45,270 nt of DNA from Escherichia phage Ioannina: sequence record OQ589852.1. The stretch is one strand, 5' to 3'. Shown one piece after another: positions 5,026-40,575 of the stretch (the stretch's first letter is position 1; every line of letters begins with the position of its first letter). The notes below the pieces were generated by a model, which saw only the letters and a list, made by a program, of their open reading frames with translations, ran no database searches and was not told the origin of the DNA. A program made the position numbers and the translations under genes.

Positions 5026-5787
5026 TTAGCGCGGAATACCGCAGATTTCGTTTAGTGTCTTCACGTCAAGCGCTACTGCCGTTGACTTCTTCTCTTCCTG
5101 CGGGATGAACTGTTTCACTTCAGGCCATGCCTTAATAAGTTTGGTGTCTGTAGTGTACTTATTCAGAGTACCCATAACTGACAATTTAAACTCATCGTAT
5201 TTAGCACGTAAATCGCGGCGCGCCTTGTCGTTCTTATCCAGACGTTTGCAAAATTCATGCTCTGCCGGGTAATCTGCACGACCGCGAGGCTTGTAGATCG
5301 GCACTTGCTCACCTTCCGCGTTAATTTCCACCAGCGCCGTAAGTAGCGCAGTTTCAAACCCAGGTACGATTTCGCCAATGTCCGGGGCCATCGAGTTATT
5401 GTAGCGGTCTTCCCAGTAGCCTCGGTGACAGCGGCTGCTGTAGTTATCACCGCTCAATGACAGTGTGCGGATGTTACCACCCATGTTGACTTCGAACGTT
5501 GCATCGTACACAGCACCAATGCCGTGGGGCATGTCCTTGTTATGGCTGAAGGTTGCACGGCTGGCGTACACGCTTATGCTAAACATGCCGTTATTTGTGT
5601 CTTGATAGCTGCGCATCATTTTCTGCAACCCAACGAAGCTGGTAACACCTTTCGGCATCTGATCCAGAGTGATATCCAGCGCCAGGTCGCGCGATTCGGT
5701 CATTAACTTTTTGGCCTGCTTCGTGATTTCGTGGCCTGCCAGGATGTTAGCCAGGATTTGCTTTTTAATGTCTTTAGTCAGTCTCAT
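5026..5787 (-). CDS. hypothetical protein, early-promoter-driven minus-strand gene inside the structural module
   Basis: About 253 aa from MRLTKDIKK with GAGGAAACAACA RBS; own promoter upstream and own terminator downstream; no recognisable motif. Confidence 0.5.
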   Translation of the reverse strand: MRLTKDIKKQILANILAGHEITKQAKKLMTESRDLALDITLDQMPKGVTSFVGLQKMMRSYQDTNNGMFSISVYASRATFSHNKDMPHGIGAVYDATFEVNMGGNIRTLSLSGDNYSSRCHRGYWEDRYNNSMAPDIGEIVPGFETALLTALVEINAEGEQVPIYKPRGRADYPAEHEFCKRLDKNDKARRDLRAKYDEFKLSVMGTLNKYTTDTKLIKAWPEVKQFIPQEEKKSTAVALDVKTLNEICGIPR

Positions 5788-5810: not shown

Positions 5811-5885
5811 TGCAACCAATATATTGCAACCAATTAGCCAATGCAAGCAAATTTTGTGATTATTTTTATCACTGATAATATTAAG
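5811..5885. promoter_or_regulatory. divergent promoter region with tandem TGCAACCAAT repeats
   Basis: Minus strand reads TTGCAT-N17-TATATT, overlapping two ATTGGTTGCA copies; plus strand has TTGTGA-N16-TAATAT upstream of the scaffold gene. Confidence 0.55.
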
Positions 5886-9959: not shown

Positions 9960-10685
9960 ATGGGTTATCAACTTCCTAACGGGTCCAGCGTCCAAATCGG
10001 GTCCGTACAGGGTGCAGGCATCGCAGTTACGGCAGCGTCGAACGCGGCGGCATCTATCAGCGACCTGACTCAAGGTTGCGTAATCACCTGCGCCGCTTCA
10101 CATGGTCTGGCGGTTGGCGACGTGGTTATGTTCACGAAATCCCCGTGGGTCCGTGCGCTTAACCAGGCTTTCATCGTGGGTAAAGTAGACACCAACGACG
10201 TGACGCTGGCGCGCTTCGACACGTCTGATACGACTAAGTATCCGAACGGTGCGTTCCAGGCAGGCACACCGGGTGAGGTCGTGAAGATTTCGAGCTTTAT
10301 CGACTTCCCGTTTATCACCAACGTTGCCGTGTCCGGTGGCGACCAGCAGACGACGACCTTCCAGCCGTTGCAGGTGAATACCGCGATCAGTCTGAACACC
10401 ACGAAAAACCCGTTGGTACAGACCTATACCTTCACCCACGACGAAGAAGACCCGATCCGTCCGATTCTGGAAGACCTGGACGACACGCAGAAGACAACGG
10501 TAATTAAGTTCACTAACCCGGCAGCGTCCAGCGGTAAAGGTGAAATCCGTATCTATGCGGCTAAGGTGTCCTTCCAGAAGATTCCGTCTGCGGAAGTAAA
10601 CAACGTCGAAACGGTACAATCCACTCTGACCATGCAGTCGGAAATGATGATTTACCGCAAAGACCTTGTTGAAGCCTTATCCTGA
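9960..10685 (+). CDS. major tail (tube) protein
   Basis: 241 aa, Ser/Thr/Val-rich beta-type composition; followed by attenuator hairpin and the G/GT chaperone pair. Confidence 0.65.
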   Translation: MGYQLPNGSSVQIGSVQGAGIAVTAASNAAASISDLTQGCVITCAASHGLAVGDVVMFTKSPWVRALNQAFIVGKVDTNDVTLARFDTSDTTKYPNGAFQAGTPGEVVKISSFIDFPFITNVAVSGGDQQTTTFQPLQVNTAISLNTTKNPLVQTYTFTHDEEDPIRPILEDLDDTQKTTVIKFTNPAASSGKGEIRIYAAKVSFQKIPSAEVNNVETVQSTLTMQSEMMIYRKDLVEALS

Positions 10686-10717
10686 TTTGGTCGGGTAAAT
10701 GGCGAGTGTTAACATTG

Positions 10718-10742
10718 GGGGCGTAAGCCCCCTTTTTAATGG
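10718..10742 (+). terminator. attenuator hairpin after major tail gene
   Basis: GGGGGCGTAAGCCCCC followed by TTTTT. Confidence 0.5.
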
Positions 10743-10752
10743 AGAGAATATC

Positions 10753-11115
10753 ATGGCTAAACAATCCCTTTTCACCCTCGACCCAAAACCGACTTTCAAG
10801 CTGCCTATTGAAATCCCGCGTCCGGGCGAGAAAGAGCCGGGTAAGCTGACTTTCACCGTCCGCCACCGTCCGATCGACGAGTTCTCGCAGACCATGCAGG
10901 AGACTGAACGCAAGCTGTCAGAGTATGACCAGAATGACCCGGACGGCTTTAACGTTATGGTCGAGGCCATCATGCATGTGGCTGAAGGCTGGAATCTGCC
11001 GGATGAGTTCACTGAAGAGAACGTACGCCGCCTGGTGGTGAACTATCCGCGTGCGTTCGGCGTGTTCCATACGTCGTACTATCTCGAATTGATGGGCTTG
11101 CGTGAAAAAAACTAA
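10753..11115 (+). CDS. tail assembly chaperone (lambda gpG-like)
   Basis: About 120 aa from MAKQSLF with GGAGAG RBS; ends just after an A-AAA-AAC slippery heptamer; lies between major tail and tape measure genes. Confidence 0.65.
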   Translation: MAKQSLFTLDPKPTFKLPIEIPRPGEKEPGKLTFTVRHRPIDEFSQTMQETERKLSEYDQNDPDGFNVMVEAIMHVAEGWNLPDEFTEENVRRLVVNYPRAFGVFHTSYYLELMGLREKN

Positions 11116-11429
11116 TTGAGGCGGCGCGACGCTTCTATGGTCCGCCGCCACCGTCCGAAGACCTTGCCGCTAGTTTATGGGGTGCGGCCCCCGAAGATAT
11201 TTGTCCGCCAGTTGCATTATGGCCTGATAACGTACAGGTCGTTGCCGTTTTCACTGACTGCTCAACGCAGTGGCGCACCGGTTTTAACGGCGCATACGGC
11301 ATCGACTACGGCGTGCTGGAATGGCTATTTAAAATGCACGGCATCGAAAATGAGAAGCGAGCTTTTAAAGATATCAAGTTAATGGAGCGTATTGCACTCG
11401 ACGAAATTGCAGCACAACAGGCCGGGTAA
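10753..11429 (+). CDS. tail assembly chaperone GT fusion (via -1 frameshift)
   Basis: G frame joined to the -1 frame at the slippery site; the extension is not the track ORF 11116..11382, which is in another frame. Confidence 0.5.
11106..11112 (+). other. -1 programmed ribosomal frameshift slippery site (A AAA AAC)
   Basis: Heptamer sits three codons before the G stop; the -1 frame beyond it stays open for about 105 codons of protein-like sequence (…AYGIDYGVLEWLFKMHGIENEKRAFKDIKLMERIALDEIAAQQAG) ending near 11429. Confidence 0.6.
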
Positions 11430-11440
11430 TTCCGGCCTTT

Positions 11441-11770
11441 TTCATAGCGGGACAGCGGGACGTCCCGTTTTTATCCCGCTGTCCCGCCCAGCCAAAAACT
11501 GCATACCTATTCAGAAATACTGCATAAAACCAAAACGGGACAAAAACGGGACAAGCAGGACGTCCCGCCTCAAAAGTGCATATCTATGCAGTTTTCGTGC
11601 ATAAAACGAACGGGACAAAAACGGGACAAATTGCAAGCGGGACAGAGCGGGACGTCCCGCCGTCCCTGCCAGAGCTGCCGCGGGTTTCAGCCGATCGGGA
11701 CAGGCGGGACAAAGCCCAGTCTTTCAGACTAGACGGGGGTCAATGGCCCCCTCCGTCTGAGACTGAATAA
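11441..11770. repeat. GGGACA iteron-like array plus conserved hairpin, copy 1
   Basis: At least ten CGGGACA/GCGGGACA units in both orientations, GGGACGTCCC palindromes, TGCATAAAAC boxes and the inverted repeat CAGTCTTTCAGACTAGACGGGGG…CCCCCTCCGTCTGAGACTG; about 180 bp nearly identical to 40205-40380. Confidence 0.8.
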
Positions 11771-11832
11771 GGTTGGTTGCAAAATGACTGATACAATACA
11801 AACGGCAACTTGCATAAAAAGGGGACTGCATA

Positions 11833-14475
11833 ATGGCAGATCAAGCGGCAGGCATCACGCTAAAGGCGGATGTTGCACAAATCAGAACGGCGAATACTGT
11901 GCTTGATTCATTCGCACAGAAATCAGAGAACACAGAAAACAAGGTTAAGAAATTAAACAACACCCTCGGCAACTCTAAAAAGGTGACGAGTGATGCCGCT
12001 GGCGGAATGGAAAAGCTGGCGAACGAATCGCATCGAGCAGCCGATGGCATGACGAAACAGGAGCGACTCGCCAACCGGTTAGGCATGTCGACCAAAAACC
12101 TGGGCTTTGCCTCGCGTAACGCCGCATTCCAGTTACAGGATATAGCGGTTACGCTTGAGATGGGTATGCCGGTGCACCGCGTCATGCTTCAGCAGTTACC
12201 ACAGCTTACTGGGGCGTTCGGTGGGTTTGGTAACACGCTGCGTTATGTTGCTGGCTTCCTCGGCCCAGTAGGGATCGGAATTGCAGCACTAACGGCAACG
12301 TTAGGCGTAGGGGTGGCAATTACGTCACGTGCCGAAAACCAGGTAGCAGCGCTTAACAAGACGCTGGCGCTATCCGGTAACATTTCCGGCCTAACTGCAA
12401 ACCAGATCCTGGTGCTATCCGAGAACGCCGAGCGCATGGGCGGGTCGTTCCGCAAGACGCGTGACACAATCCAGGCGCTGGCGGCGGCGGGTGTGAAAGC
12501 GGGTGCAGACTTCGGCACGCTGGCGAAAGTGGTGAATGATTTTGCGAAGGCGTCCAGCCAGCCGATCGAGGATGTGGTCGCGGCGGTGGCGAAGCTGTCT
12601 ACCGACCCGGTAGGTGGCTTGCGAGCATTGGCTGATAAGTATCACGTCGTAAACGAAGCGCAGATCCAGCAGGTGCAGTCACTAGTGACGGCTGGTCGCG
12701 AAACCGAAGCGGTGGCGCTGGCTAACAAAACAGCCGCAGCGTCGTTTACCACTATGACCAATGAGATCAAGTCCAACATGGGTACGCTTGAGCGGTCGAT
12801 GAACGTCGTTACATCGGCAGCTAAATCTATGTGGGATGCCATCCTGGATGTTGGACGCGCGCAGTCCTCGAATGAGTCAGAGATGAAAGCGCGTGAATCA
12901 TTGCAGCGACTGACCACGGCTTACTATGCCGAGATGAAAGCGGTAAACGCTGCCGGTGGGGTGATGACCGAAGCGCAGAAATCGCGTATTAACATGCTTT
13001 ACAGCGAACTGGTCGCCCAGGAGAAGGTGGTGGCGTCGCTCACCCTGCGCAACCGTGCCGAGCGGGACAACGCCAGCGCCGCGGACGCAGCAGCAAAGGC
13101 GAACGAAGAGGCAAACCGCACCGCCCGCGACCGCGCTGCGTTTGAGAAGGAGTACGCAACCAACGCGAAGAGGCGCGCCGACGAGATCGCCCGCCTCAAT
13201 TTGCTTAATAAGCGCGGCGTGATTGACGAGAAAGAGCTTGCCGAGGCGGTGAAGCAGGTAAACGAGCGTTACAAAGACCCCGCCCCGAAGAAGGCCGCCG
13301 CTGTTCGAGTCGATGCCGGGCTGAAAATGCTGGAAGTAGCACGGAGCGAACTGGCACAGCTTCGTGAGTCTGGAAAGCAGATCGAAGCCAACTCCTCGAC
13401 GCAGACCCGAACGCAACGCGCGCAAGCGGCCCTGAACAAGCTGATCGCGGATAATGAGCAGTTAATCGCCGCAAGCAAAGAAAGAGCACTAACGGCAGCC
13501 GAAAAGCAGCAGATGGTCGAATTCGGACGCGTGAAGGAAGTACGCGAGCAGATCGTCGAAGAAGCCAAATTGCTGGACGCGAAAGAGAAGCAGGTCAAGG
13601 CGCACGTGCAGATCGACGCCTTCGTTAAGAACCAGAACGCCGAGCTAAAAGCCACCGCGGCGGGCTATGCGCTTTCCACTCGCGAAGCGGCAAACCTGCG
13701 TGAAGAATTGCAGCTAATTGACCGCCTGAAGCGGGTGGGCGCTAGTGATACCGATATTGATCTGGCGGTGTCTAAACTGCGCGAAGTGCAGGAAGCACAG
13801 ACCGGTGCTAACGCCTCACTATGGGATGGATTCAGCCGTGGGCTTAAGGATAGCGTGGATGAAATGGGTAACGGCTATACGCAGATGGTATCGGCAACGA
13901 AATTTACATTCGGCGCTATGATGGACACGATGAATGAATTTTTCGAGACTGGTAAATTCAACGCGAAGGAAATGATTAAATCCATCCTGAGCGAATTTAT
14001 CAAGCTGGCTACCTCGCAGGCGTTCAAGTCCGTAATCAACGCATTCGGCGGTGACGGTGGGAAGAATGGTCTGTTCGGGGCAATCTTCTCCGGTCTGACG
14101 AAGAATGCCGACGGAGGAGCGTACGCTGGCGGCAACCTGTCCGCATATTCCGGTCAGATCGTAAGCCAGCCAACCTTTTTCAATTACGGCGTTAAGGCGT
14201 TCGCTAACGGCGCGGGATTGATGGGTGAGGCTGGGCCGGAGGCCATCATGCCGCTGAAGCGCGGGCCGGACGGTAAACTGGGCGTTGCCGCAAGTGGGGC
14301 TGGTGGTGGAATCGTCGTGACAACGAACGTGAACATGGGTACAGGGCAGGCTTACACCAGCGTTAAAGGGACCGACCCGCGAATGGGGCAGGTATTCGGC
14401 AAGCAGATCACGGAAGCGGTTAAGGCCGAAATCGTGAAAGCGACTAAACCAGGTGGAGTACTTTACAAACGATGA
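11833..14475 (+). CDS. tail tape measure protein
   Basis: 880 aa, long Ala/Gln/Glu-rich coiled coil, Gly-rich C-terminal part; downstream of G/GT. Confidence 0.9.
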   Translation: MADQAAGITLKADVAQIRTANTVLDSFAQKSENTENKVKKLNNTLGNSKKVTSDAAGGMEKLANESHRAADGMTKQERLANRLGMSTKNLGFASRNAAFQLQDIAVTLEMGMPVHRVMLQQLPQLTGAFGGFGNTLRYVAGFLGPVGIGIAALTATLGVGVAITSRAENQVAALNKTLALSGNISGLTANQILVLSENAERMGGSFRKTRDTIQALAAAGVKAGADFGTLAKVVNDFAKASSQPIEDVVAAVAKLSTDPVGGLRALADKYHVVNEAQIQQVQSLVTAGRETEAVALANKTAAASFTTMTNEIKSNMGTLERSMNVVTSAAKSMWDAILDVGRAQSSNESEMKARESLQRLTTAYYAEMKAVNAAGGVMTEAQKSRINMLYSELVAQEKVVASLTLRNRAERDNASAADAAAKANEEANRTARDRAAFEKEYATNAKRRADEIARLNLLNKRGVIDEKELAEAVKQVNERYKDPAPKKAAAVRVDAGLKMLEVARSELAQLRESGKQIEANSSTQTRTQRAQAALNKLIADNEQLIAASKERALTAAEKQQMVEFGRVKEVREQIVEEAKLLDAKEKQVKAHVQIDAFVKNQNAELKATAAGYALSTREAANLREELQLIDRLKRVGASDTDIDLAVSKLREVQEAQTGANASLWDGFSRGLKDSVDEMGNGYTQMVSATKFTFGAMMDTMNEFFETGKFNAKEMIKSILSEFIKLATSQAFKSVINAFGGDGGKNGLFGAIFSGLTKNADGGAYAGGNLSAYSGQIVSQPTFFNYGVKAFANGAGLMGEAGPEAIMPLKRGPDGKLGVAASGAGGGIVVTTNVNMGTGQAYTSVKGTDPRMGQVFGKQITEAVKAEIVKATKPGGVLYKR

Positions 14476-21935: not shown

Positions 21936-21975
21936 CTTAAATATAGTGCAACCAATACGTGATTGCAACCAATTT
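21936..21975 (-). promoter_or_regulatory. early-type promoter (TTGCAA-N17-TATATT) with tandem ATTGGTTGCA repeats
   Basis: Read on the minus strand: ATTGGTTGCAATCACGTATTGGTTGCACTATATT; drives the lipoprotein cassette. Confidence 0.55.
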
Positions 21976-26321: not shown

Positions 26322-26356
26322 GTTAATATAGTGCAACCAACCTATTGGTTGCAAGT
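26322..26356 (-). promoter_or_regulatory. early-type promoter containing perfect palindrome TGCAACCAA-N4-TTGGTTGCA
   Basis: Minus strand reads TTGCAA-N18-TATATT; the palindrome looks like a dimer operator. Confidence 0.55.
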
Positions 26357-27997: not shown

Positions 27998-28032
27998 CCA
28001 ATATAATGCAACCAATCTCGCAATGCAACCAA
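27998..28032 (-). promoter_or_regulatory. early-type promoter (TTGCAT-N17-TATATT) with tandem ATTGGTTGCA repeats
   Basis: Minus strand: ATTGGTTGCATTGCGAGATTGGTTGCATTATATT. Confidence 0.55.
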
Positions 28033-31246: not shown

Positions 31247-33537
31247 TATTTTCTATACCTGTACATGATGTCGCCTTCAGCGGCGAGCGGGAAGCCCTTA
31301 GCCCACACCGGCAGATCGCACATTAACCGGCATAACTCTTCCGTCGTGTAATCGTCCGTGTCCGGCACTTCGGTGATTAATTCATCGTGCACCGACAGGA
31401 CGATTTCGTATCCCGCCGCTTCGACGCCAGGCATTGCCCATGCGAGAATATCGCGGCACAGCGCCTGTACAATGTTCTCTGTCAGTTTGCCGCCGTAGGT
31501 GTACTGGAAGCCCCACTGGCGCGTCGTCTGATTCTCGCCCTGATATTTAATGCGGGTGTTGGTTTTCTTCTTGCCGGTGTCTTCGTCAACTTCAGTAGTT
31601 ACTGACAGCGCAATGCCAGGATAGCTCATGATACGACCCGACGGCAACTCGACTTTCAGCCACCAGCCGGGCGCGTCTGGGTCGTCCCGCTCATCGTCAA
31701 ACGTCGGGTCGTGCTTAGCCTTCGTGCGCATGATTTTAAGCGCCTGTTTGCCGTCTGGACGCACGTTAGCACCGGCCCAGTATGATTTGCCCGGATTGCG
31801 GATTGCGCACAGCACAGCGTCTTCCAGTTCGGCCCAGAATCTAACCGTTTCCGGGTGGGACTCACGCCACATACGCTTGATCGCATCGCAGGTAAGCCAC
31901 ACGTTCTTCGGCAGGATGTAAGTCGGTCGCTCGTCTTTCTTGCCAGGCTTCGGCGGACGCTTCGCTTCATTAATCCTCGCGTACTCGTACCCGCGTTTCG
32001 CTGCGGCCCATATGTGATCCGGGAACGTGCCTTTCATCACGTCTGCCATCGCATACAGGTCAAGACCCAGGTTTTTGGCAAACTGCAAGAACGCCGCAAC
32101 GCCACCACCATAGCCGAGGCCCAATTCACAGGCCTTACCGATCTGGCGAAGGTCTTTGCGGTTGGCCTTGATATAATCCGGGTCGAGGCCGAACATCTTA
32201 CCGGCAGTTTCGCAATAAATATCGCGTCCCGCCTTAAAGACCATCAACGCAGTTTTCTCGCCCGCAATCCAGGCAAGGCCGCGTCCTTCCACGTTGGAGT
32301 AGTCCGCTACAACAAACTTCTTACCCTTAGCCGGGATAATGCAGCCGCGTACGGTCGATGCTGTCAGCTTAGATATGTCGTACGCCCAGTGTGCGGTCCC
32401 GCGTAATAGGGAATTGATGCCGTTGGTTAGCATGTGCGACCGGACCCAAAACGACACGTCGCTTTCACCATCACGGCGCTTGATCTTGCCTTCGTGGTCG
32501 TCGCTGTACTCGCCACGCGCCAGGTTTTGAGGCTGAAAACTTTTACCGGCCCAGCGCAATGTTCGTTTAGCACCACCATACTGAAGACAACCACGGCGGC
32601 GACCGTCAGACGACAGACCGTTAACGAGCGGATTGTATTTGGTCGACGCCGTTGATGACGCACCGAGGCGCATTTCAATCAGAACTTTGCCCTCGTCCGG
32701 GAAGTCCGGGTCTTCCAGCAAATCATTCAGTGTGGATTTCTGCGCGTTATGGATAGTGAAAGCTGGCGCAATATCTCGTAACAACGGCAGGAAATCATTT
32801 CCGGTCAGCTTACCGCCAAACTTCTCCATCGCTTCTTCTTTCAGTTCTTCCTTGTGCGCTTCAACGGCCTTGATGGCGGCGTAGGCCAGTTCGGTGTCCA
32901 CGTTGAAGCCGCGGTCATTGATCAACTGGTCAATTGCCAGTATCTGGTCTTCCTTCGGAGTATTACCCCAATCCGGGATACGCCAGTACACTTCACGCAT
33001 CGCGATAATATCGAAGCGTGCATACTTGAGGAATTTGGCCCACTCTTCCGGGTGAGTCTCGCGAGTGTAGCGACGGACTTTGTAAGTCTTCGGCGTTGGC
33101 TTACAGAATCGCTTAATCAGCGCCTTGCCCGCTTTATCTTTCGCATGTTCAGCGTCAACGCCCAATACCTGGCATTGCATGTCAAGGCTGCCGGGGAGGG
33201 CGTGGCGGAAGGCCATAATCATGGTGTCTTCGATCTGGCAAACCGGCAGGTCAATACCCCACTTCTCACGGATAACCAGGCGGTCAAACAGGAGGCCGTT
33301 AGCCATTACGATTTTTGCTTTCTTGCGGACTACCGCACGCAATGCCTTACGCAGTTCACTCGGCATCTTCGGCGATTCAGTAGCGTCCCACGTCTGAACA
33401 CGGCCTTCATCAATGGCGTAGGTGCAGATCATGATTTCCGTGGTTGGGTGTTCTGCATACGCGTATGCGCCGACCTTCTTCAGATCAACGCCGCTAAACG
33501 TTTCGGTATCGAGGAATAGTCGTTCGAAGTTCATTGT
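31246..33537 (-). CDS. DNA polymerase, family A, with 3'-5' exonuclease domain
   Basis: Exo I motif FLDTETFSG; Pol motif A DYSNVEGR; motif B RQIGKACELGLGYGGG; motif C SVHDEL; start at MNFERLF with RBS. Confidence 0.9.
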   Translation of the reverse strand, partial: TMNFERLFLDTETFSGVDLKKVGAYAYAEHPTTEIMICTYAIDEGRVQTWDATESPKMPSELRKALRAVVRKKAKIVMANGLLFDRLVIREKWGIDLPVCQIEDTMIMAFRHALPGSLDMQCQVLGVDAEHAKDKAGKALIKRFCKPTPKTYKVRRYTRETHPEEWAKFLKYARFDIIAMREVYWRIPDWGNTPKEDQILAIDQLINDRGFNVDTELAYAAIKAVEAHKEELKEEAMEKFGGKLTGNDFLPLLRDIAPAFTIHNAQKSTLNDLLEDPDFPDEGKVLIEMRLGASSTASTKYNPLVNGLSSDGRRRGCLQYGGAKRTLRWAGKSFQPQNLARGEYSDDHEGKIKRRDGESDVSFWVRSHMLTNGINSLLRGTAHWAYDISKLTASTVRGCIIPAKGKKFVVADYSNVEGRGLAWIAGEKTALMVFKAGRDIYCETAGKMFGLDPDYIKANRKDLRQIGKACELGLGYGGGVAAFLQFAKNLGLDLYAMADVMKGTFPDHIWAAAKRGYEYARINEAKRPPKPGKKDERPTYILPKNVWLTCDAIKRMWRESHPETVRFWAELEDAVLCAIRNPGKSYWAGANVRPDGKQALKIMRTKAKHDPTFDDERDDPDAPGWWLKVELPSGRIMSYPGIALSVTTEVDEDTGKKKTNTRIKYQGENQTTRQWGFQYTYGGKLTENIVQALCRDILAWAMPGVEAAGYEIVLSVHDELITEVPDTDDYTTEELCRLMCDLPVWAKGFPLAAEGDIMYRYRK

Positions 33538-34482: not shown

Positions 34483-34578
34483 TTTCCAATTCCTCATTTC
34501 ACATGTATCGGGGTTATTAGAAGCCACCCCGTCCGGCTTGGTTGCTAATGTACTTGGTTGCGTTTCCGCGGTCAAGTG

Positions 34579-34812: not shown

Positions 34813-36235
34813 CGCCCAAATCCTCGTCTCTTGCTTCTTGCCATTCCGGGCGCGGGTCGTCAACTGGTGCCAGGACCGGTTTCGCCGGCGCACGCGTGAT
34901 TTTATCTTGCAGTTTCGCCCACACTTTCGGTTTCTCATCCTTCAGCACCTTCTCGGCATCAGTAGGGCTGATTAATGATTCCTTGTACATCAGGTCGCGC
35001 TTGATCCGGGCCGTTGTGAATACTGCGATAACTTCGCTTTCATCCTTCCACTTACGCGCACCTTCACGACCAGCTACCAGCTTCAGGCCCAGCGCTTCGC
35101 CGTCACCGGCTAACACTGCTTTGAATACGGCAGCCTCGATCGCTTTGATGTGCTGGCGCATGGTTTCCAGGCCGTCGTAAGCCTTCTTCAGTTCTTCCGT
35201 GGTCATAGCACCGGCTGGCGCTTCTTTCTTTCCACGCTTCGCACGTCGGGCAGCTTTCCGGGCTTCGAGGTCCATGTTCAGGTCGTGGTTTTTGCATTCT
35301 TCCTCGGCGGCAATGCTTACATCGTCGCCCAGGTCTTCGTCGGTTGCCGTTGGTGGCGTCATTGTGTCGATGGCGGCTTTAGCGCGGGCACTACATTGGT
35401 CCGCAAATCGACACCACTGACACGCATCGGCGCTCGGACGGAAGTCTGCACGGGTGAGATTCTTCTTACCCTTAGCGAGGGCATCCAGGGCGGCTACTGC
35501 GCGTTTTGCTGCGTACTTGGCGAAGATTTCCAGTGCTTCCACCGAAATATCCCACTCCGACGCCCCGCCGCAATACGGCTGGAATATGACCAGGCGCACG
35601 GTTGTTATGTCGTACATCTTTTGCAGCTTGCGCAGCAGTCCGAGCGCATACAGCATAAGCTGTTTGTTCTCTTTCGCCTCGACCTTATGGCGTCCGGTCT
35701 TCAGGTCGCCCACAATGAGCATGTACGTGCCGTCGGTCTTCTTCATTACCATAACCATATCGGCAGTACCGAAGGTCTTGATCGCTTCGCCGTCAATCTC
35801 GTAGCCTTTGTGCAGGACGCGAGTCAGATCCGCGCGCATCTCAAGCTGGACAAACTCGGCAACTTCAAGCAGCGGTCGCCAGTGGTCGATGTACGCGTCG
35901 CACTGTTTCACCATGTCGTCAGTTACCAGGATGGCGTCCTTAGGTGCTTTCGCTGCCGCTTTAACTGGTCCTTTACCCTGATTTTCGACGTAGCACCCTT
36001 TATATGTCTTCGCCGTGATGTGGTCTTCGCCTGCAATGATGCGGTTTAGTACCACTTCAGATACGGTGTGCATACTCGTACCGTTGATCGCGGCTTGCCC
36101 GGATTCGTTCGGAATACCTTTCTCCACCACCAGGGCGGCGGGACACCCCATCCATTTTTTAGCGCCGGATGGGCCGAGTAATGAGTGTTCTGTATTACTG
36201 CCGGATTGCGTCTTGCGCTTCGCTTTGATAGCCAT
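34805..36235 (-). CDS. Cas4-like PD-(D/E)xK exonuclease with Fe-S Cys cluster and long C-terminal extension
   Basis: N-terminal Cys plus GDLKTGRHK and QLMLYALGL core motifs and C-x2-C-x5-C (CQWCRFADQC); about 200 aa charged C-terminal region of unknown role. Confidence 0.65.
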   Translation of the reverse strand: MAIKAKRKTQSGSNTEHSLLGPSGAKKWMGCPAALVVEKGIPNESGQAAINGTSMHTVSEVVLNRIIAGEDHITAKTYKGCYVENQGKGPVKAAAKAPKDAILVTDDMVKQCDAYIDHWRPLLEVAEFVQLEMRADLTRVLHKGYEIDGEAIKTFGTADMVMVMKKTDGTYMLIVGDLKTGRHKVEAKENKQLMLYALGLLRKLQKMYDITTVRLVIFQPYCGGASEWDISVEALEIFAKYAAKRAVAALDALAKGKKNLTRADFRPSADACQWCRFADQCSARAKAAIDTMTPPTATDEDLGDDVSIAAEEECKNHDLNMDLEARKAARRAKRGKKEAPAGAMTTEELKKAYDGLETMRQHIKAIEAAVFKAVLAGDGEALGLKLVAGREGARKWKDESEVIAVFTTARIKRDLMYKESLISPTDAEKVLKDEKPKVWAKLQDKITRAPAKPVLAPVDDPRPEWQEARDEDLGDE

Positions 36236-36438
36236 TATTCGACCCTCGTAAATTGAGCAATATAATAATCATGCTTAATTCCTGCTTTCGCCGCGGCGTT
36301 ATTCATTGTCGCTGCCAGTTCTTTCGCTTGCATCCAGCAACAATTCCAGTTCTGATTCATAATTATTTCCGGCTGTTCGTCGCCGGTGTTACGGCAGCGA
36401 AATAAAATAAAGAAAATACTCATTATGGCGTCTCCCAA
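36235..36438 (-). CDS. hypothetical small protein
   Basis: 67 aa ORF in early operon; no motif. Confidence 0.3.
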   Translation of the reverse strand: MGDAIMSIFFILFRCRNTGDEQPEIIMNQNWNCCWMQAKELAATMNNAAAKAGIKHDYYIAQFTRVE

Positions 36439-36674
36439 CGGTCAATAGTTTTTGCTTCAGACCCAACTGCAAAGCGAACATATTCGTGATTCGAGTCCGC
36501 CCATAAATAAAAGTCTGGATTAGCGAAGGTCGTGCGTTTAATTTGTGCCGGTGTTTCCCGCTTCTTACTAATTACGGCAACGCGGGATTGAAAGGGGCCG
36601 GTGCGCTCGAATAGCCAGTAGTACGGGCGCTGGTCGCGCGAGTCCACCGCTTCAATTAATGTGAATCGTGCCAT
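36423..36674 (-). CDS. hypothetical protein
   Basis: 83 aa; second gene of the leftward early operon. Confidence 0.35.
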   Translation of the reverse strand: MARFTLIEAVDSRDQRPYYWLFERTGPFQSRVAVISKKRETPAQIKRTTFANPDFYLWADSNHEYVRFAVGSEAKTIDRWETP

Positions 36675-36689
36675 TGTCTCGTCTCTTTA

Positions 36690-36712
36690 AAAATAGGCCC
36701 GCAGAATAGCGG
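36690..36712 (-). terminator. minus-strand attenuator hairpin after first early gene
   Basis: GGCCCGC-TATTCT-GCGGGCC followed by TATTTTT on the minus strand. Confidence 0.5.
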
Positions 36713-36722
36713 GCCGGGTATA

Positions 36723-37225
36723 TTAGTCTTCCAGTTCGAAATAGGTTTCGACTATTTCTTTCAGTTCGGTGTGGAAGTCTTCAACGTCGTCATCTTCCAG
36801 CTTAGCCACAGTCTTGATTTCGAACGATTCCAGCAGGTCGTCAAATTCGTCGTTCGCGTCGTCATCGTCACCGCCTGCAATGATTGCCGCGTATTGTGCA
36901 ATTTCATCGCGCATTTCTTTCAGTGGATCGGCGTCTTTCTTAGCCTTCACTTTGCCCTTGCCTTTGGCTGGCTTTTCTTCCGGTTCGTCTTCGTCGTCGT
37001 CATCTTCTACGACTTCTTTTTTCGCCTTGCCCTTAGCCGTGGACTTCTTAGCAGGTTTCTTATCTTCCTGCTCGTTATCTTCGTCTTTGGCTTCTTCTTT
37101 CTTAGCCTTAGACGGTTTCTTATCTTCCTGCTTACCAACGGCAGCGCCCTGGGTTTCGTAATGTTTAGCGATGGTTTCCAGTGCTACTACGCCGCGAGTA
37201 ATCAGATTCAGGATTTGCTCAAACA
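36723..37225 (-). CDS. first early protein, highly charged low-complexity with very acidic C-terminus
   Basis: About 167 aa from MFEQILNL; lysine-rich blocks alternating with DDDDEDE-type blocks; promoter-proximal in the early operon. Confidence 0.45.
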
Positions 37226-37477: not shown

Positions 37478-37807
37478 ATGAATATCAACGAAGCAATTGA
37501 AGTGTTATCTAATGCAATCCGCGGCGAGACGGGTAAATCCTGGTATTACACGAATGCGGTGGGTACTCTGCTATTTGAGGTGTCCCGATTATCGCGTGTC
37601 GAGAAAGAGCTTACCGCCAAACTTGAATTGCTGAACGGTACGGCGGCGAGCAAGCTGCAAAAGCATAACGAAGAAATGGAAGAATACAAAAAGCAGGTTA
37701 TCAGACTGCGTGAAGAAGGTAAGTCCTGGGCGATGATTGCCGAGTTAACGGGTATTAATCAGAGCACCGTTCGTTCTTGGGTCCGCAATACTAAAACTGC
37801 TAAGTAA
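37478..37807 (+). CDS. HTH DNA-binding regulator
   Basis: 109 aa; C-terminal helix-turn-helix (SWAMIAELTGINQSTVRSWV); first gene of the rightward operon beside the divergent promoters. Confidence 0.6.
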   Translation: MNINEAIEVLSNAIRGETGKSWYYTNAVGTLLFEVSRLSRVEKELTAKLELLNGTAASKLQKHNEEMEEYKKQVIRLREEGKSWAMIAELTGINQSTVRSWVRNTKTAK

Positions 37808-37819
37808 GGAATTGAGACA

Positions 37820-40084
37820 ATGAGAAATATAGAATTTGCGATCACACCCCCCGCTAAGAAAGGCGAATCTGCGGTAGCTCATAACCAGTCCATGACTACC
37901 GCCGAGTTTTTCGAATTTATCCAGGATGCACCGGTAGTGTCGTCAGTTTGCATTAACGGTACTGAAGATAAAAAAGAATATGCGCGACGTAAGCGTAAAG
38001 GCGACGGCATTGTGGCTACAACCGCCGATGGCACGCGTAAAAAGACTGGCGTGGTTAGCCGCTCGATCCTGTTCTTCGACCTGGACCGTGCTGACAACCG
38101 CACACTTACCCGCTGCCGCAGGGCTTTCCGCAAGTCCGGCCTGGAATATGTCTACCACACCACCACCGGCGACCGCCACCCGTTGAAAGACGGCAAGCGC
38201 TGTGTGCGTTTCCTGGTGCTGACAAACAAGCCAGTTCCGGCGGAAGACTTGGGTCGCGCGCAGGCTGCACTGCTTGAGCAACTGGGTCTTACCGACGCGG
38301 GCTTTGATGACTGCTCGAAAGACACAAACCGCCTTATGTACCTGCCCCACCAGCAGGCTAAGGTCGAGTGTCATGAGGGTGAACGCGCTAACGTGCGTCG
38401 TCTGCTTCGCCTGGCTGACAAGATGGGTATTGAGCAGGAAACGTTTCGCCGTGAACTGGTGCAGGGCGACGACGAGCAGATGAACGGCATCCTCGACTGG
38501 TGTTTCCAGGCTGGTTTTGAGCCGTTACCATCCGGGCGCGGTTATGAAGTACCGTGCCCAAACGAACATCTGCACTCTGGTGAAGGGTCTACCGCTATCA
38601 TGCTTAAGGATGGCGAGATTCGTTTCAAATGTATGCACACCGGCAACGGATGCTGTTCTGAACTGAACAAACACCAACACCTGGCGCTGCGAATGATTGG
38701 TATCCCGGATATTTATAACGTGGAACCTCACAACATGTCGCGCAAACAGATCTCGGCAATCCTGCCCGGACTGGACGATGAAGAAGTGGACGCGCAGTAT
38801 GAGCACATGGTCGATCTGGTTGGCGAAGGTGAGGATTATGCGTCCTGTACTGACGCAGACCTGGAAGACGAACCAACGGCACTGTTCTCTAAACACGACC
38901 CGATCATCGAAGGTCTGATTAACTTCAAATCGACCTGGTACGCAGCGGGTGAGTCGAACATTGGTAAGTCCTTCTTCGTCCTGGGTCAGATGGCTGCCGT
39001 TGCCGCTGGCATCCCGTTCGGCGGCGCTAAGGTCGTCCAGTCCCATTGCTTCTACTTCGATGCGGAAGGTGGCGAGGCGTCCCACCAGCGTAAAGAAGCG
39101 TTGCAGATTAAATATGAGCACGACCTGGACAAGCTGCACATTATCGACCTTCAGGCACGCGGCTGGGATATTACGAGCAAATCCGGCCTGCGTGAAGTCA
39201 TCAGCTTTATCAACCGCACAGCGGATGGGGAACCGGTCGGCCTGGTGGCGTTCGACTCCCTTAACCAGACCGTGGCCCTGCGCTCGGCAGATGCCAAACC
39301 GTTCGACGAGAACAACGCAAGCGATATGGGTGAGATTGTCAAAGCGCTGAAGTCCATTGCGGAAAACACAGGCGGCAGTGCGGGCGTCATCCACCACCCG
39401 GCGAAGGGTGCAAACGGCAGCCGATCCCCGCGTGGGTCCGGTGCGCTACATGGCGCGGTGGATTCTGCATTCTTCCTGGAACAGCCAGACGAGAATCAGC
39501 CAGGCCAGCTTAACCTCTATCATGAGAAAGCCCGTAACGGCGTGAAACAGGGTCCGCGCGGCTTCGTGCTACTGAAGTGCAAAGTGTCCATTAACGAGCG
39601 CAAGTCCGACACGTTCGAAGCGCACCAGTCCACTAACCCTGGTCCAGACTTCGGCGATGTGGTTGCCGGTTGGGACGTCAAGCCAATCCAGGCCACCCCG
39701 CGTGATGAGACTCTGTACCTTGTACCGGTAGCTCTGGTCCCGTTCGCTATCGAACAGGCGAAGGCCGCGGGCAAGCAGGCTGTTAAGGAAGAAAACCCCG
39801 CCGGTCCGCGCAATGAAAAAGAGAAAGTGCTTTACGCAGCGCTCGAAGCGTTGATGGAAGAGAATCCGGGACACCATGGCTTCAGCAAATCGGCAATCGT
39901 CCGCAAAGCCGGACTGGCGAAAGGTGGCACATCGACGAAGCCAATAGACGATATGCGTGAGCGCGGAATAATCGGCTTTTACAAAGACCCGGACACCGGG
40001 GCCATTTACGGGTCGTCGAATCTGGTTATCAATTCACAAATACCTATGCAATTGACGGCGACGGATGATGATTTGAAAGATTAA
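37820..40084 (+). CDS. DNA primase / replicative helicase (bifunctional)
   Basis: 754 aa; N-terminal primase-like domain (FFDLDRADN), Cys/His cluster (CPNEHLHSGEG…CMHTGNGCC), C-terminal RecA/DnaB-like ATPase with Walker A GESNIGKS. Confidence 0.75.
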   Translation: MRNIEFAITPPAKKGESAVAHNQSMTTAEFFEFIQDAPVVSSVCINGTEDKKEYARRKRKGDGIVATTADGTRKKTGVVSRSILFFDLDRADNRTLTRCRRAFRKSGLEYVYHTTTGDRHPLKDGKRCVRFLVLTNKPVPAEDLGRAQAALLEQLGLTDAGFDDCSKDTNRLMYLPHQQAKVECHEGERANVRRLLRLADKMGIEQETFRRELVQGDDEQMNGILDWCFQAGFEPLPSGRGYEVPCPNEHLHSGEGSTAIMLKDGEIRFKCMHTGNGCCSELNKHQHLALRMIGIPDIYNVEPHNMSRKQISAILPGLDDEEVDAQYEHMVDLVGEGEDYASCTDADLEDEPTALFSKHDPIIEGLINFKSTWYAAGESNIGKSFFVLGQMAAVAAGIPFGGAKVVQSHCFYFDAEGGEASHQRKEALQIKYEHDLDKLHIIDLQARGWDITSKSGLREVISFINRTADGEPVGLVAFDSLNQTVALRSADAKPFDENNASDMGEIVKALKSIAENTGGSAGVIHHPAKGANGSRSPRGSGALHGAVDSAFFLEQPDENQPGQLNLYHEKARNGVKQGPRGFVLLKCKVSINERKSDTFEAHQSTNPGPDFGDVVAGWDVKPIQATPRDETLYLVPVALVPFAIEQAKAAGKQAVKEENPAGPRNEKEKVLYAALEALMEENPGHHGFSKSAIVRKAGLAKGGTSTKPIDDMRERGIIGFYKDPDTGAIYGSSNLVINSQIPMQLTATDDDLKD

Positions 40085-40087
40085 ATT

Positions 40088-40175
40088 TTGCGCGCATTGG
40101 TTGCCAATATGGTTAATTTGTGCGCGCATTGGTTGCCGGATTGAGCATTAAATTCATATCGTATTGGTTGCCGTG
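40088..40175. repeat. three direct repeats of (GCGCGC)ATTGGTTGCC spaced about 34 bp
   Basis: Immediately downstream of the primase-helicase stop. Confidence 0.7.
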
Positions 40176-40204
40176 TAGTGTTAAAGAAGTGAATAATTAT
40201 GCAA

Positions 40205-40380
40205 AATACGTGCATAAAACAAACGGGACAAAAACGGGACAAACGGCAAGCGGGACAAAGCGGGACGTCCCGTCGTCCCCGTCAGTCGTGGCGCGGGTTT
40301 GAGGCAAACGGGACAAGCGGGACAGACCACAGTCTTTCAGACTAGACGGGGGGTATTGTCCCCCCTCCGTCTGAGACTGC
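40205..40380. repeat. GGGACA iteron-like array plus conserved hairpin, copy 2
   Basis: Collinear with 11591-11770 (TGCATAAAAC, ACGGGACAAAAACGGGACAA, GCGGGACA-AGCGGGACGTCCCG, CGCGGGTTT, hairpin CAGTCTTTCAGACTAGACGGGGGG…CCCCCCTCCGTCTGAGACTG). Confidence 0.8.
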
Positions 40381-40529
40381 ATAAAATCTCTGGTTGCATA
40401 ATCAACGGCAGCATAGTGAAAAATGCGGCGGGGGTAGATCTCGGCAACCAATGCGAGTTGAAGAGTGGAGAGTGAAAAATGCAGTTTGCAATTGCAACTC
40501 ATAGCGATCAGCATTTTCATGCGCGTGAT

Positions 40530-40575
40530 TAATATTGGTTGCATCCAGCCTGGCACCTTGCTATATTGGTTGCAC
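40530..40575 (+). promoter_or_regulatory. early-type promoter (TTGCAT-N17-TATATT) with ATTGGTTGCA repeats
   Basis: Plus strand: ATTGGTTGCATCCAGCCTGGCACCTTGCTATATTGGTTGCAC, about 30 nt upstream of the ATG at 40596. Confidence 0.55.

Follow-up and report, generated by a model that had tools for sequence, protein, structure and literature searches.

A candidate iteron-type replication origin 3' of the helicase-primase gene of Escherichia phage Ioannina and a second, origin-like copy in its tail operon

The stretch of DNA analyzed here, 45,270 nucleotides from Escherichia phage Ioannina (OQ589852.1; referred to as the window), carries GGGACA repeat modules at two loci, one in the tail operon (locus A, 11447-11765) and one 3' of the helicase-primase gene (module B, approximately 40189-40379). 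With moderate confidence, we interpret these modules as cis-acting DNA sites of the replication machinery rather than as genes, promoters, or a mobile repeat. The best reading, to which we give about an even chance, is that a self-loading helicase-primase reads an iteron-type replication origin in this phage and that the late genes contain a second, origin-like site. Module B would be ancestral and most probably serves as the replication origin; it combines an AT-rich segment, 5-to-7-bp iterons in direct and inverted orientations, and a hairpin-forming repeat downstream of a fused helicase-primase gene. It is proposed that the C-terminal winged helix of the helicase-primase binds the GGGACA iterons, that oligomerization of the enzyme on the array melts the adjoining AT-rich segment, and that the inverted repeat, once unwound, folds into a hairpin that may give the primase part a place to load or prime. 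Locus A would be an ancient duplication of 1.5 modules plus an iteron palindrome, lodged between the chaperone and tape-measure genes, and might act as a second origin or as an accessory site bound by the initiator, comparable to oriR of SPP1 or crr of P4. A previous sequence-only reading had offered three roles without ranking them (origin iterons, an array for a regulator of a late-gene switch, or a structured RNA). The origin is now the best supported of the three, because four additional lineages carry the module immediately 3' of their helicase-primase genes, because the iteron changes together with the winged helix, and because the layout resembles that of origins served by self-loading helicases.

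Tail chaperone and tape-measure genes are normally contiguous. In the window, the last position of the chaperone T-domain frame (Pfam DUF1799) is 11429 and the first of the tape-measure gene (PF06791) is 11833, which leaves a noncoding gap of 403 bp (11430-11832). The existence of this gap had been recognized from the letters of the sequence, but its size had been given as 390 bp. All of the elements previously described were recovered at or near their proposed places and above chance. Thus, the claim of at least 10 (G)CGGGACA units in both orientations was borne out by 15 GGGAC/GTCCC cores in 11449-11710 (10 forward and 5 reverse), the palindromes and boxes were located (GGGACGTCCC at 11457 and 11649 and TGCATAAAAC at 11521 and 11598, each with a further copy in module B, at 40262 and 40211, respectively), and the long inverted repeat said to end the array was found (Table 1).

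The repeats were concentrated at the two loci, which held the only iteron clusters in the window. The heptamer CGGGACA occurred 18 times in the window compared to 6.5 expected, a count reached in none of 100 shuffles, and 14 of the 18 copies fell within 11448-11711 or 40224-40324. Nine GGGAC/GTCCC cores were counted in 40225-40362. Against a background density of 0.58 per 400 bp for this core, all other 400-bp windows contained fewer than 4. The sequence TGCATAAAA was present in 5 copies, with 0.42 expected. The palindrome at the start of locus A had a folding energy of -30.3 kcal/mol (z = -5.9). Within locus A, 11495-11554 resembles 11572-11629, and this internal partial duplication brings to three the number of modules of the type TGCAT..TGCATAAAAC..CGGGACAAAAACGGGACAA in the window.

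Table 1. Features at and around the two repeat loci (positions in the window)
Feature	Position	Strand	Remarks
Rho-independent terminator-like hairpin	11419..11438	+	overlaps stop of chaperone T domain
Locus A, iteron palindrome	11447..11487	.	2 direct and 2 inverted units; perfect 14-bp arms
Locus A, partial module 1	11495..11568	+	AT-rich TGCATA..TGCATAAAAC, 11495-11535; then 2 direct units and AGGACGTCCC palindrome, 11536-11568
Locus A, module 2, AT-rich segment	11572..11610	+	TGCATATCTATGCA palindrome and TGCATAAAAC box
Locus A, module 2, iterons	11611..11711	+	4 direct and 2 inverted, 11611-11666; GC-rich spacer, 11667-11695; distal pair, 11696-11711
Locus A, long imperfect inverted repeat, three-tier hairpin	11717..11765	.	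paralogous to 40330-40379
TGATACAAT, extended -10-like sequence	11789..11797	+	between hairpin and tape-measure start
Helicase-primase gene (754 aa), proposed trans-acting reader	37820..40084	+	RepA/DnaB-like AAA_25 core, aa 355-531; acidic tail
ATTGGTTGCC direct repeats (n = 3; 40096, 40128, 40163)	40096..40172	+	upstream of module B; members of a separate, promoter-linked motif family, TTGGTTGC
Module B, AT-rich segment	40189..40223	+	TGAATAATTATGCA palindrome and TGCATAAAAC box; 70-80% A+T; three 1-mismatch DnaA-box-like sites
Module B, main iteron array	40224..40279	+	4 direct CGGGACA-type units, then 2 inverted GTCCC units
Module B, GC-rich spacer	40280..40308	+	only GCGCGG..TTT kept, rest variable
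Module B, distal iteron pair CGGGACAAGCGGGACA	40309..40324	+	
Module B, long imperfect inverted repeat, three-tier hairpin	40330..40379	.	apex (loop and start of 3' arm) carries inverted iteron TGTCCC
Inverted copy of the ATTGGTTGCC motif (CGGCAACCAATGCG)	40442..40455	-	with 40096-40172 brackets module B
Sigma-70-type promoter, TTGGTTGCA family (TTGCAT, 17 bp, TATATT)	40539..40567	+	heads + strand genes from 40596

The two loci, 28.6 kb apart in the window, are copies of one another. The sequence 11574-11785 was collinear with 40187-40402 over approximately 215 bp, at 82% identity by blastn (E = 7e-58) and 87% column identity in a MAFFT alignment. The collinearity that had been proposed for the last 180 bp and 40205-40380 was thus upheld, but at 82 to 87% the copies do not deserve the description "near-identical." It had also been observed that the hairpin stems are kept and the loops differ, and this held, with stems identical between the two copies and loops not. 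The sequences 3' of the two hairpins were nonhomologous. A comparison of the two copies for concerted evolution yielded only a marginal same-genome excess (83.6% versus 82.0%).

Both copies were kept unit by unit in approximately 140 to 160 Dhillonvirus genomes. The region was matched in 158 phage records, with query coverage of at least 80% in 142 to 143 of them, and whole-element matches were confined to Dhillonvirus-like phages. Orthologous copies were 89% identical, those of locus A being as conserved as those of module B, and paralogous copies were 82 to 84% identical. Among 32 copies compared, the direct iterons and the hairpin stems were invariant or nearly so and the TGCATAAA box was invariant, while the loop and the GC spacer drifted; the spacing between iterons varied from 8 to 12 bp, orthologous positions included. 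Coding was considered and rejected, as the 70- and 64-aa open reading frames of locus A and the 128-aa antisense frame at the other locus belong to no Pfam family and their orthologs carry 1-nt indels inside the array. Both loci are noncoding.

Homologous modules were present 3' of the helicase-primase gene in phages TS6, GRNsp27, and phiEap-2 and in five metagenomic contigs (L132, L150, L158, L161, and L166), where 28 to 38 nt separate the helicase-primase stop codon from a TGAATAGT box and the iterons start inside this stretch, approximately 10 to 30 nt past the stop in TS6, phiEap-2, L158, and L161. In Ioannina, module B begins approximately 105 bp past the stop (40084), and its hairpin begins 246 bp past it. 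Together with this phage, the association of the module with the 3' end of the helicase-primase gene extends to five lineages. These relatives share a scaffold of AT-rich TGAATA boxes, iteron array, GC spacer, iteron pair, and three-tier hairpin, but the iteron is GGGGGAG, CGGACA, or CCGACA instead of CGGGACA. The module site holds 6 of the 7 genomic iteron copies in TS6 and 9 of the 27 in phiEap-2. Moreover, the apex of the G-rich hairpin carries in each case an inverted copy of the iteron of its own lineage (TGTCCG, TGTCGG, or TGTCCC); in module B, the apex iteron spans the loop into the 3' arm. The outgroup genomes checked held one module copy, with none ahead of the tail genes, so that, among the genomes compared, the tail-operon copy looks like a Dhillonvirus-specific duplication. 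The gap between chaperone and tape-measure genes is absent in TS6, Bas74, K1H, and phiEap-2, where the junction is seamless. In the Kagunavirus-type phages K1H, Bas74, and Esher4, no module follows the helicase gene, and a terminator and an antisense helix-turn-helix (HTH) gene are found there instead.

The protein that would read the iterons is named a hexameric replicative helicase of the RepA type in related records (PMC4913238). AAA_25 was its sole Pfam match, its N-terminal part matched no Pfam or NCBIfam family, and the full protein had no match among PDB sequences at E values up to 1. An N-terminal primase is only suggested, by the names given by depositors and by a DxD and a Cys/His motif seen by eye. 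A C-terminal winged-helix domain was predicted at aa 666-734 (nt 39815-40021), and in an alignment of this domain built from genome sequences the iteron class tracked the residues just after an invariant GG turn, where helix 3, the predicted recognition helix, begins: TSTK/TNTT, N(S/Q)RRR, RRRP, or DRYK. This correlation comprises four classes that are also phylogenetic groups. The winged-helix fold itself is generic, and a word-indexed protein search with the C-terminal domain returned 2 matches only. A similarity of the domain profile to the TALE-like protein BurrH (summed E = 2e-30) was discarded as a generic helix-turn motif, each repeat being weak over approximately 20 residues.

The conserved stems and variable loops had been taken as a sign of selection on structure. 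Within the genus this was not supported, as none of the 32 predicted pairs showed compensatory change (covariation term, -0.12). The stems there are simply invariant, for which reason the within-genus test is uninformative rather than negative. Across lineages, the proposal gained support, since equivalents of the 40330-40379 hairpin exist in TS6, phiEap-2, L158, and L161 with different arm sequences, all three stem tiers having been replaced by other complementary sequences. For the inverted repeats of the two loci, the RNA folding energies were -28 to -32 kcal/mol (z = -3.8 to -5.2), whichever strand was folded; for module B, the values were -28.9 (+ strand) and -32.1 (- strand) as RNA and -14.7 kcal/mol as DNA (z of about -5). 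The stability as RNA, the retention of structure despite changed arms, the location of all copies on the transcribed strand, the GGA or GA core common to the iterons of all lineages, and a weak promoter-like site that points into module B (9/12; TTGCCG, 18 bp, AATAAT; 40168-40197) would all suit a transcribed module acting as a processing or 3'-stabilizing hairpin, a put/nut-like antitermination element, or a GGGA-repeat small RNA that sequesters an RNA-binding protein. We nevertheless find a structured RNA improbable. Units occur in both orientations and the apex shows the reverse complement of the array motif, forms that duplex DNA, unlike RNA, does not distinguish; both strands give an equally good hairpin, which lacks a 3' U-tract; no pairs covary within the genus; and TS6-type modules, by inspection, have no equivalent upstream -35/-10 pair. 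A known RNA family was also rejected, as a search of the whole window against Rfam at the gathering score gave zero matches.

Control of late transcription has more in its favor and is still, in our judgment, unlikely. Here, the GGGACA units and TGCATA boxes would bind a phage regulator that switches on or insulates two late + strand blocks. At module B it would act in front of the lysis, terminase, and head genes; at locus A, transcription stopped by the terminators at 10717 and 11419 would be restarted for the tape-measure and distal tail genes. Both copies are indeed co-oriented with transcription at the head of late gene blocks, locus A is preceded by two terminator-like hairpins, and the module sits at the same early/late boundary in TS6 and phiEap-2. 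An early gene (37478-37807) encodes a 109-aa protein with a sigma-70 region-4-like HTH. Furthermore, the TGATACAAT sequence 3' of locus A is a possible promoter for the distal tail genes, the form (g)cTGATACAAT being kept in each complete copy of locus A from 14 other Dhillonvirus genomes; it was not called by a two-hexamer promoter scan, and no sigma-70 promoter (-35/-10 hexamers with 16-to-18-bp spacing) was called in 10600-12400. Against this, the recognizable sigma-70-type promoters of the phage belong to another motif family (TTGGTTGCA..TATATT) than GGGACA. The nearest of them lies outside the module, 160 to 380 bp downstream of the array in module B, and the TTGGTTGCA-family pattern recurs at five other sites in the window. 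The lack of homology downstream of the two hairpins also speaks against late control, as does TS6, which has the replication genes of this phage and the module without a homolog of the HTH protein. Finally, it is the helicase-primase C-terminal domain with which the iteron class goes, and in five lineages the module accompanies the 3' end of the gene for this protein, with no second copy before the tail genes in the outgroups checked.

It is also conceivable that locus A has no function of its own and that illegitimate recombination placed a copy of origin DNA in the tail operon, where it became fixed and is tolerated, as the locus is a rearranged 1.5-copy module and relatives thrive with a single module and a seamless junction. 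This is less probable still than a structured RNA, because locus A is present in essentially all Dhillonvirus records (the 142 to 143 of 158 given above), its orthologs are conserved like those of module B, and the contrast between near-invariant iterons, boxes, and stems and a drifting loop and spacer is a pattern of purifying selection, not of decay. A packaging, partition, or mobile-element site (terminase-binding repeats near a genome end, a centromere, or a MITE-like repeat) is the explanation to which we assign the least weight, and it appears very remote. Three phage records end approximately 90 to 110 bp downstream of the module B hairpin (near window position 40490), and inverted ATTGGTTGCC-type repeats bracket module B. 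Most records start elsewhere, however; the small terminase is of a P22 gp3/Sf6-like type and is encoded 5 kb away, and the published cos sequence of a Dhillonvirus (phage EE09) is not in the window, so that packaging was rejected. No transposase or partition genes are present. A generic mobile repeat, an outcome that the sequence-only reading itself had named as refuting, was likewise rejected, with zero matches in 5,426 Escherichia coli genomes and 72,556 plasmids and whole-element matches to Dhillonvirus-like phages only. In unrelated viral contigs, only a short, 11-bp-phased GGGACA repeat recurs and not the whole element. The exact 19-mer CGGGACAAAAACGGGACAA was found in 24 unrelated viral loci that had no flanking similarity to the window; these contigs had no proteins in common with the window except for one weak 37-residue match to contig L023. 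The 24 loci are independent iteron arrays, and several of them adjoin replication or recombination genes.

Several observations count against an origin. The AT-rich segment of module B has iterons on one side only, whereas TS6-type modules have two iterons on either flank of their AT-rich stretch, in the same direction. The spacing between iterons drifts, and the co-orientation of both copies with transcription at the head of late gene blocks also suits transcription control. Module B is, moreover, set in a dense regulatory region, with TTGGTTGC sites and the promoter 160 bp downstream. GC skew showed no inflection at either locus and was dropped as an origin marker, as it merely tracks gene orientation and transcription. 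DnaA-box-like sites were not enriched across the window (35 versus 29 expected), with three located within 30 bp in module B.

If the origin reading is correct, it defines a precise origin (40189-40379) and its cognate initiator domain for a group in which a search of 8 million papers and preprints found no described replication origin or replication-control element, for either Dhillonvirus or its Guernseyvirinae-type relatives, and no description of the element itself. Common virulent phages of E. coli and Salmonella, the Dhillonviruses and Guernseyvirinae-type relatives figure in the BASEL collection and in therapy-oriented work. Four iteron specificities (CGGGACA, CGGACA, CCGACA, and GGGGGAG) would be set on one scaffold, each matched by slight differences at a single helix of the winged-helix domain, providing a compact system for studying the coevolution of initiator and origin specificity and for orthogonal replicons. 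The same reading would account for a rare anomaly, i.e., 400 bp of strongly conserved noncoding DNA between chaperone and tape-measure genes, and would supply a second example, in a phage of Gram-negative bacteria, of an SPP1-type origin copy inside late genes. More tentatively, and with only a small probability in our estimation, locus A could be a coupling device, in which bound helicase-primase acts as a fork or transcription roadblock that times the change from theta replication early on to concatemer replication late, as proposed for gp38 at oriR of SPP1, or makes expression of the tape-measure and distal tail genes dependent on replication. The replication initiator would then directly gate virion-tail gene expression via a duplicated origin.

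The closest functional parallels come from elements whose helicase is its own loader. In SaPIs, the C-terminal winged helix of the Rep helicase binds penta- or hexanucleotide iterons, 6 to 12 of which lie directly downstream of rep around an AT-rich region, and in SaPI5 primase and Rep are fused (PMC9371898). The modules described here similarly have short iterons (9 GGGAC(A) cores in module B and 15 in locus A), cognate iterons differ from element to element in both systems, and the helicase carries a predicted C-terminal winged helix, the helicase itself being in SaPIs the initiator that reads the iterons. Location directly downstream of the helicase frame is true of module B but not of locus A. 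Conversely, the SaPI arrangement of a central AT-rich region with at least two opposed iterons on each side is found in locus A (reverse units at 11462 and 11481, AT-rich at approximately 11490-11530, and forward units at 11537 and 11548), while module B has no left iteron and its AT-rich segment is at the edge of the array. The core of the SaPI enzyme is SF3/AAA+ and that of this phage is RepA/DnaB-like; therefore, the analogy with SaPI, P4, and pRN1 is one of function and not of family membership. Further differences are the conserved three-tier hairpin, the second copy in a tail operon, and the host element, a virulent 45-kb phage with its own polymerase.

P4 has two separated iteron-bearing cis regions, ori and crr. 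Its alpha protein joins primase, helicase, and a C-terminal winged helix that binds origin repeats in one polypeptide (PMC4234260), but the TOPRIM primase and SF3 helicase of alpha have neither a Pfam match nor any similarity found in the Ioannina helicase-primase, and the P4 iteron is an octamer. The oriV of RSF1010 (IncQ) combines iterons with ssi hairpins (PMC4234260), stem-loops that are exposed on unwinding and serve a dedicated primase; in the phage, the iterons adjoin one long hairpin-forming repeat. The RSF1010 helicase is of the RepA type, as AAA_25 suggests for the phage enzyme. RSF1010 differs in its three separate proteins (RepA, RepB', and RepC), its two ssi hairpins on opposite strands, and its 20-bp iterons. 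Plasmid pRN1 (ORF904) and Bordetella phage BIP-1 depend on a large stem-loop located immediately 3' of their replication genes; that of pRN1 is essential for replication and can be relocated (PMC4234260). The hairpin at 40330-40379 occupies the comparable place 3' of the helicase-primase gene, with its predicted winged helix, although the pRN1 and BIP-1 origins are without iterons and their proteins have an SF3 helicase and a recognizable prim-pol (AEP), neither of which gave a Pfam match here.

For the presence of two sites, the counterpart is SPP1, which has two origins of like organization, one of them in a noncoding segment interrupting the virion genes, and both oriL and oriR are bound by the same origin-binding protein (PMC6316719). 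Where this phage has a fused helicase-primase, SPP1 relies on gp38 as a separate origin-binding protein, on a loader and a DnaB-type helicase, and on the primase and polymerases of its host; oriL lies inside gene 38, and a hairpin element is not described for SPP1. As in SPP1, the two sites of Ioannina share an organization in which direct repeats accompany an AT-rich segment, lie kilobases apart, and are placed one at the replication genes and the other in a noncoding segment that interrupts the order of virion genes, with transcription signals on either side.

The window represents all or nearly all of the genome of a Dhillonvirus, an HK578-like virulent coliphage, with 99 to 100% identity to 'Dhillonvirus LM40P1' records and ~82 to 84% identity to HK578, KarlBarth, rolling, and others. 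CGGGACA occurs in it 18 times versus 6.5 expected, and 14 of these 18 copies lie in two places, locus A, between the tail-chaperone T domain (DUF1799) and the tape-measure gene (PF06791), and module B, 3' of the helicase-primase gene. The GGGAC/GTCCC core is present in 15 and 9 copies, respectively, versus a background of 0.58 per 400 bp, and the rest of the window nowhere comes near these densities. The sequence-only reading had placed locus A in a noncoding gap of 390 bases and called part of it near-identical to module B; the gap is present, at 403 bases, and the two places are collinear, at 82 to 87% identity. Palindromes, TGCATAAAAC boxes, and terminal inverted repeats were located where that reading had put them, and the inverted repeats form stable folds on both strands, as RNA or DNA. 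Within locus A there are also a partial internal duplication and an iteron palindrome of 41 bp. Coding capacity of the modules was rejected, as was a mobile repeat as their identity. Three one-mismatch DnaA-box-like sites (TTATTCACT, TTATGCAAA, and TTATGCACG) lie inside 30 bp of the module B AT-rich segment; across the whole window such sites are not enriched (35 versus 29 expected), and GC skew was uninformative on origin position. Directly past the major tail protein gene is a strong terminator-like hairpin (GGGGGCGTAAGCCCCC, then TTTTT); because it coincides with the beginning of the chaperone ORF called at 10699, the true chaperone start may be downstream.

Positions of features in the window and, where named, in other phages or viral contigs
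Feature	Position	Strand
HTH protein, helicase-primase, small genes, lysis, terminase, head, and tail	~37.5 kb to window end and on to ~24 kb	+
Replication genes	25-37.4 kb	-
Terminator-like hairpin	10717-10732	
Chaperone T-domain frame, end	11429	
Tape-measure gene, start	11833	
Locus A	11447-11765	
GGGAC/GTCCC core copies, locus A	11449-11710	
Module B	~40189-40379	
GGGAC/GTCCC core copies, module B	40225-40362	
Collinear segments	11574-11785 with 40187-40402	
DnaA-box-like sites	40188-40217	
GC-rich spacer, locus A	11667-11695	
GC-rich spacer, module B	40280-40308	
HTH protein	37478-37807	+
Helicase-primase	37820-40084	+
Its residues 666-734	39815-40021	
Its acidic tail	40060-40081	
Promoter at head of late genes	40539-40567	+
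TTGGTTGC sites	5812-5833, 21948-21972, 28008-28032, 30984, 40444	-
TTGGTTGC sites	34538-34561, 37282, 40096-40172, 40535-40573	+
TTGGTTGC site	26333-26352	
TGAATAGT box, Bas74 (L128)	33100-33220	
TGAATAGT box, K1H (L129)	31690-31810, ~35700-36750	
GGGACA array, contig L008	4346-4380	
GGGACA array, contig L023	3334-3420	
GGGACA arrays, contigs L010 and L021	~5040-5300	

Locus A and module B were matched in 158 phage records, all Dhillonvirus-like irrespective of label, with at least 80% query coverage in 142 to 143 of them; the sole depositor annotation was a small feature at the 5' edge, labeled 'terminator' or 'repeat_region'. When 32 copies out of 16 genomes were compared unit by unit, no or almost no variation was seen in the TGCATAAA box, in any direct GGGACA unit, in either arm of the hairpin, or in the GAGACTGnATAA that follows. 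The loop of the hairpin varied, as did the GC-rich spacer over most of its length, and unit spacing shifted by one base. Orthologous copies were 89% identical and paralogous copies 82 to 84%, with almost no excess within the same genome; the duplication is therefore older than the genus, and selection has retained both copies ever since. The earlier argument that conserved stems with differing loops indicate selection on structure was unprovable within the genus, where compensatory stem changes were found in 0 of 32 pairs, and gained support from arm replacement across lineages. In a comparison that included contigs L047 and L061, the GC-rich spacers of module B and locus A resemble each other in the window lineage and in the divergent L061, and are unlike each other in most other Dhillonviruses, a hint that gene conversion has now and then acted between the two places.

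Homologs of the helicase-primase with 44% identity over the full length are encoded by Salmonella phages TS6 and GRNsp27, and directly past the stop codon there sits a module with the scaffold of module B: TGAATAGTTATTCA palindromes, a direct-repeat array with one inverted unit, a spacer (..GGGTTT..GCCGA..), two further repeats, and two hairpins, one small and one G-rich. The iteron there is GGGGGAG, and 6 of the 7 TS6 genomic copies are inside the module. Searching viral contigs for the shared TGAATAGTTAT box gave more modules, in each of which 28 to 38 nt separate the helicase-primase stop codon from the box; their iterons are CGGACA (Enterobacter phage phiEap-2 and two contigs) and CCGACA (one further contig). 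Across lineages, three tiers of the hairpin stem are swapped for other complementary sequences (e.g., CAGTC/GACTG, AGTCTTAG/CTAAGACT, and ATCATC/GATGAT), every version folds well, and the apex (the loop, extending into the 3' arm in module B) contains each lineage's own iteron in inverted form. On this sampling, locus A appears to be a Dhillonvirus-specific duplication, since TS6 and phiEap-2 have a single module each, with a seamless chaperone/tape-measure junction, and ~30 related Salmonella phage records have one module place apiece. Kagunavirus-type relatives were without the module.

Helicase-primase residues directly past an invariant GG turn, at the beginning of helix 3, track the iteron class: TSTK/TNTT with CGGGACA, even in a lineage with 61% identity in the C-terminal domain, N(S/Q)RRR with CGGACA (two lineages), RRRP with CCGACA, and DRYK with GGGGGAG. 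This correlation, over four classes that are each also a clade, is suggestive, not proof, of the C-terminal domain as the likely iteron reader. The sole profile match of residues 666 to 734, a predicted winged helix, was BurrH (PDB 4cj9), a TALE-like DNA-binding repeat protein sharing the motif GFSxSxIVKxAG..GG (summed E value of 2e-30 over ~19 repeats, each weak); this likeness may reflect a generic helix-turn motif. The full protein had no relative among PDB sequences, and its N-terminal part had no family match. Its acidic C-terminal tail, T(D/E)(D/E)DL(K/E/A)(D/N), is kept in every homolog, down to an identity of 31%, and is reminiscent of the acidic tails by which contacts are made in the T7 replisome. 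TS6 has the replication genes in common with the window phage and no homolog of the HTH protein, a 109-amino-acid early protein with an HTH like sigma-70 region 4, HTH_23, and IS630-type domains (Pfam and NCBIfam); the latter is a candidate reader of TTGGTTGC or TGCATA boxes.

The likeliest reading, to which we give about an even chance, makes module B an origin of the iteron type lying 3' of a self-loading helicase-primase, and locus A an origin-like duplicate within the tail operon. Both places stand at the head of a late gene block, and terminators and a conserved TGATACAAT flank locus A, as might be expected of an array controlling late transcription; we consider such a role viable though unlikely. 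No promoter comparable to the TTGGTTGC family was found in the modules. It is quite improbable that the modules act as RNA, given motif units in two orientations, the strand symmetry of hairpin folding, and the lack of an Rfam match or covariation.

TTGGTTGC itself occurs 22 times in the window versus 2.2 expected, frequently paired, and six sites form a promoter family with a -35 TTGCA(a/t) within TTGGTTGCA, a 17-bp spacer containing a second TTGGTTGCAc, and TATATT. The family is apparently the sigma-70 promoter and operator system of the phage; equivalent places in TS6-type phages carry TGTTGGCTG. The TGAATAGT box of the modules recurs in Kagunavirus-type promoter spacers and -10 regions on the flanks of a Cro-like HTH gene (e.g., TTGACAtgTGAATAGTtcgcTATTATAgt) and may be a conserved operator common to these phage groups. 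Dhillonvirus records PV841870, PQ178821, and NC_073065 end at window position ~40490, ~110 bp past the hairpin of module B, and Pandora71 starts there too; this point is either a physical end of the genome or an annotation convention common to the records. The window does not contain the 5' cos ATCTTAAGGG that was reported for phage EE09. GGGACA arrays with an 11-bp phase and up to 13 GGGAC/GTCCC units occur in unrelated viral contigs, one (L008) separated by ~190 bp from the beginning of a gene for a D5-like primase-helicase (DUF5906/Pox_D5), one in a RecT and ATPase neighborhood (L023), and others at tRNA/integrase junctions, with L005, L015, and L022 beside tRNA genes. These appear to be independent iteron systems using the same short motif.

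The literature searched gave no account of the element or of any origin for these phages. Rep helicases of SaPIs use a C-terminal winged helix to bind iterons of five or six nucleotides, 6 to 12 of which lie directly 3' of rep around an AT-rich region, and in SaPI5 primase and Rep are fused (PMC9371898). P4 alpha binds its origin repeats via a winged helix, RSF1010 has, beside its iterons, ssi hairpins that its primase uses, and a stem-loop 3' of the replication gene is required in pRN1 and predicted to be so in phage BIP-1 (PMC4234260). SPP1 has two origins alike in organization, of which oriR lies in a noncoding segment breaking up virion genes, and the oriR-bound initiator is the proposed trigger of a switch in replication mode (PMC6316719). 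Although the helicase-primase, with its RepA/DnaB-like core (AAA_25), falls outside the protein families of these systems, the GGGACA element would work like a blend of them.
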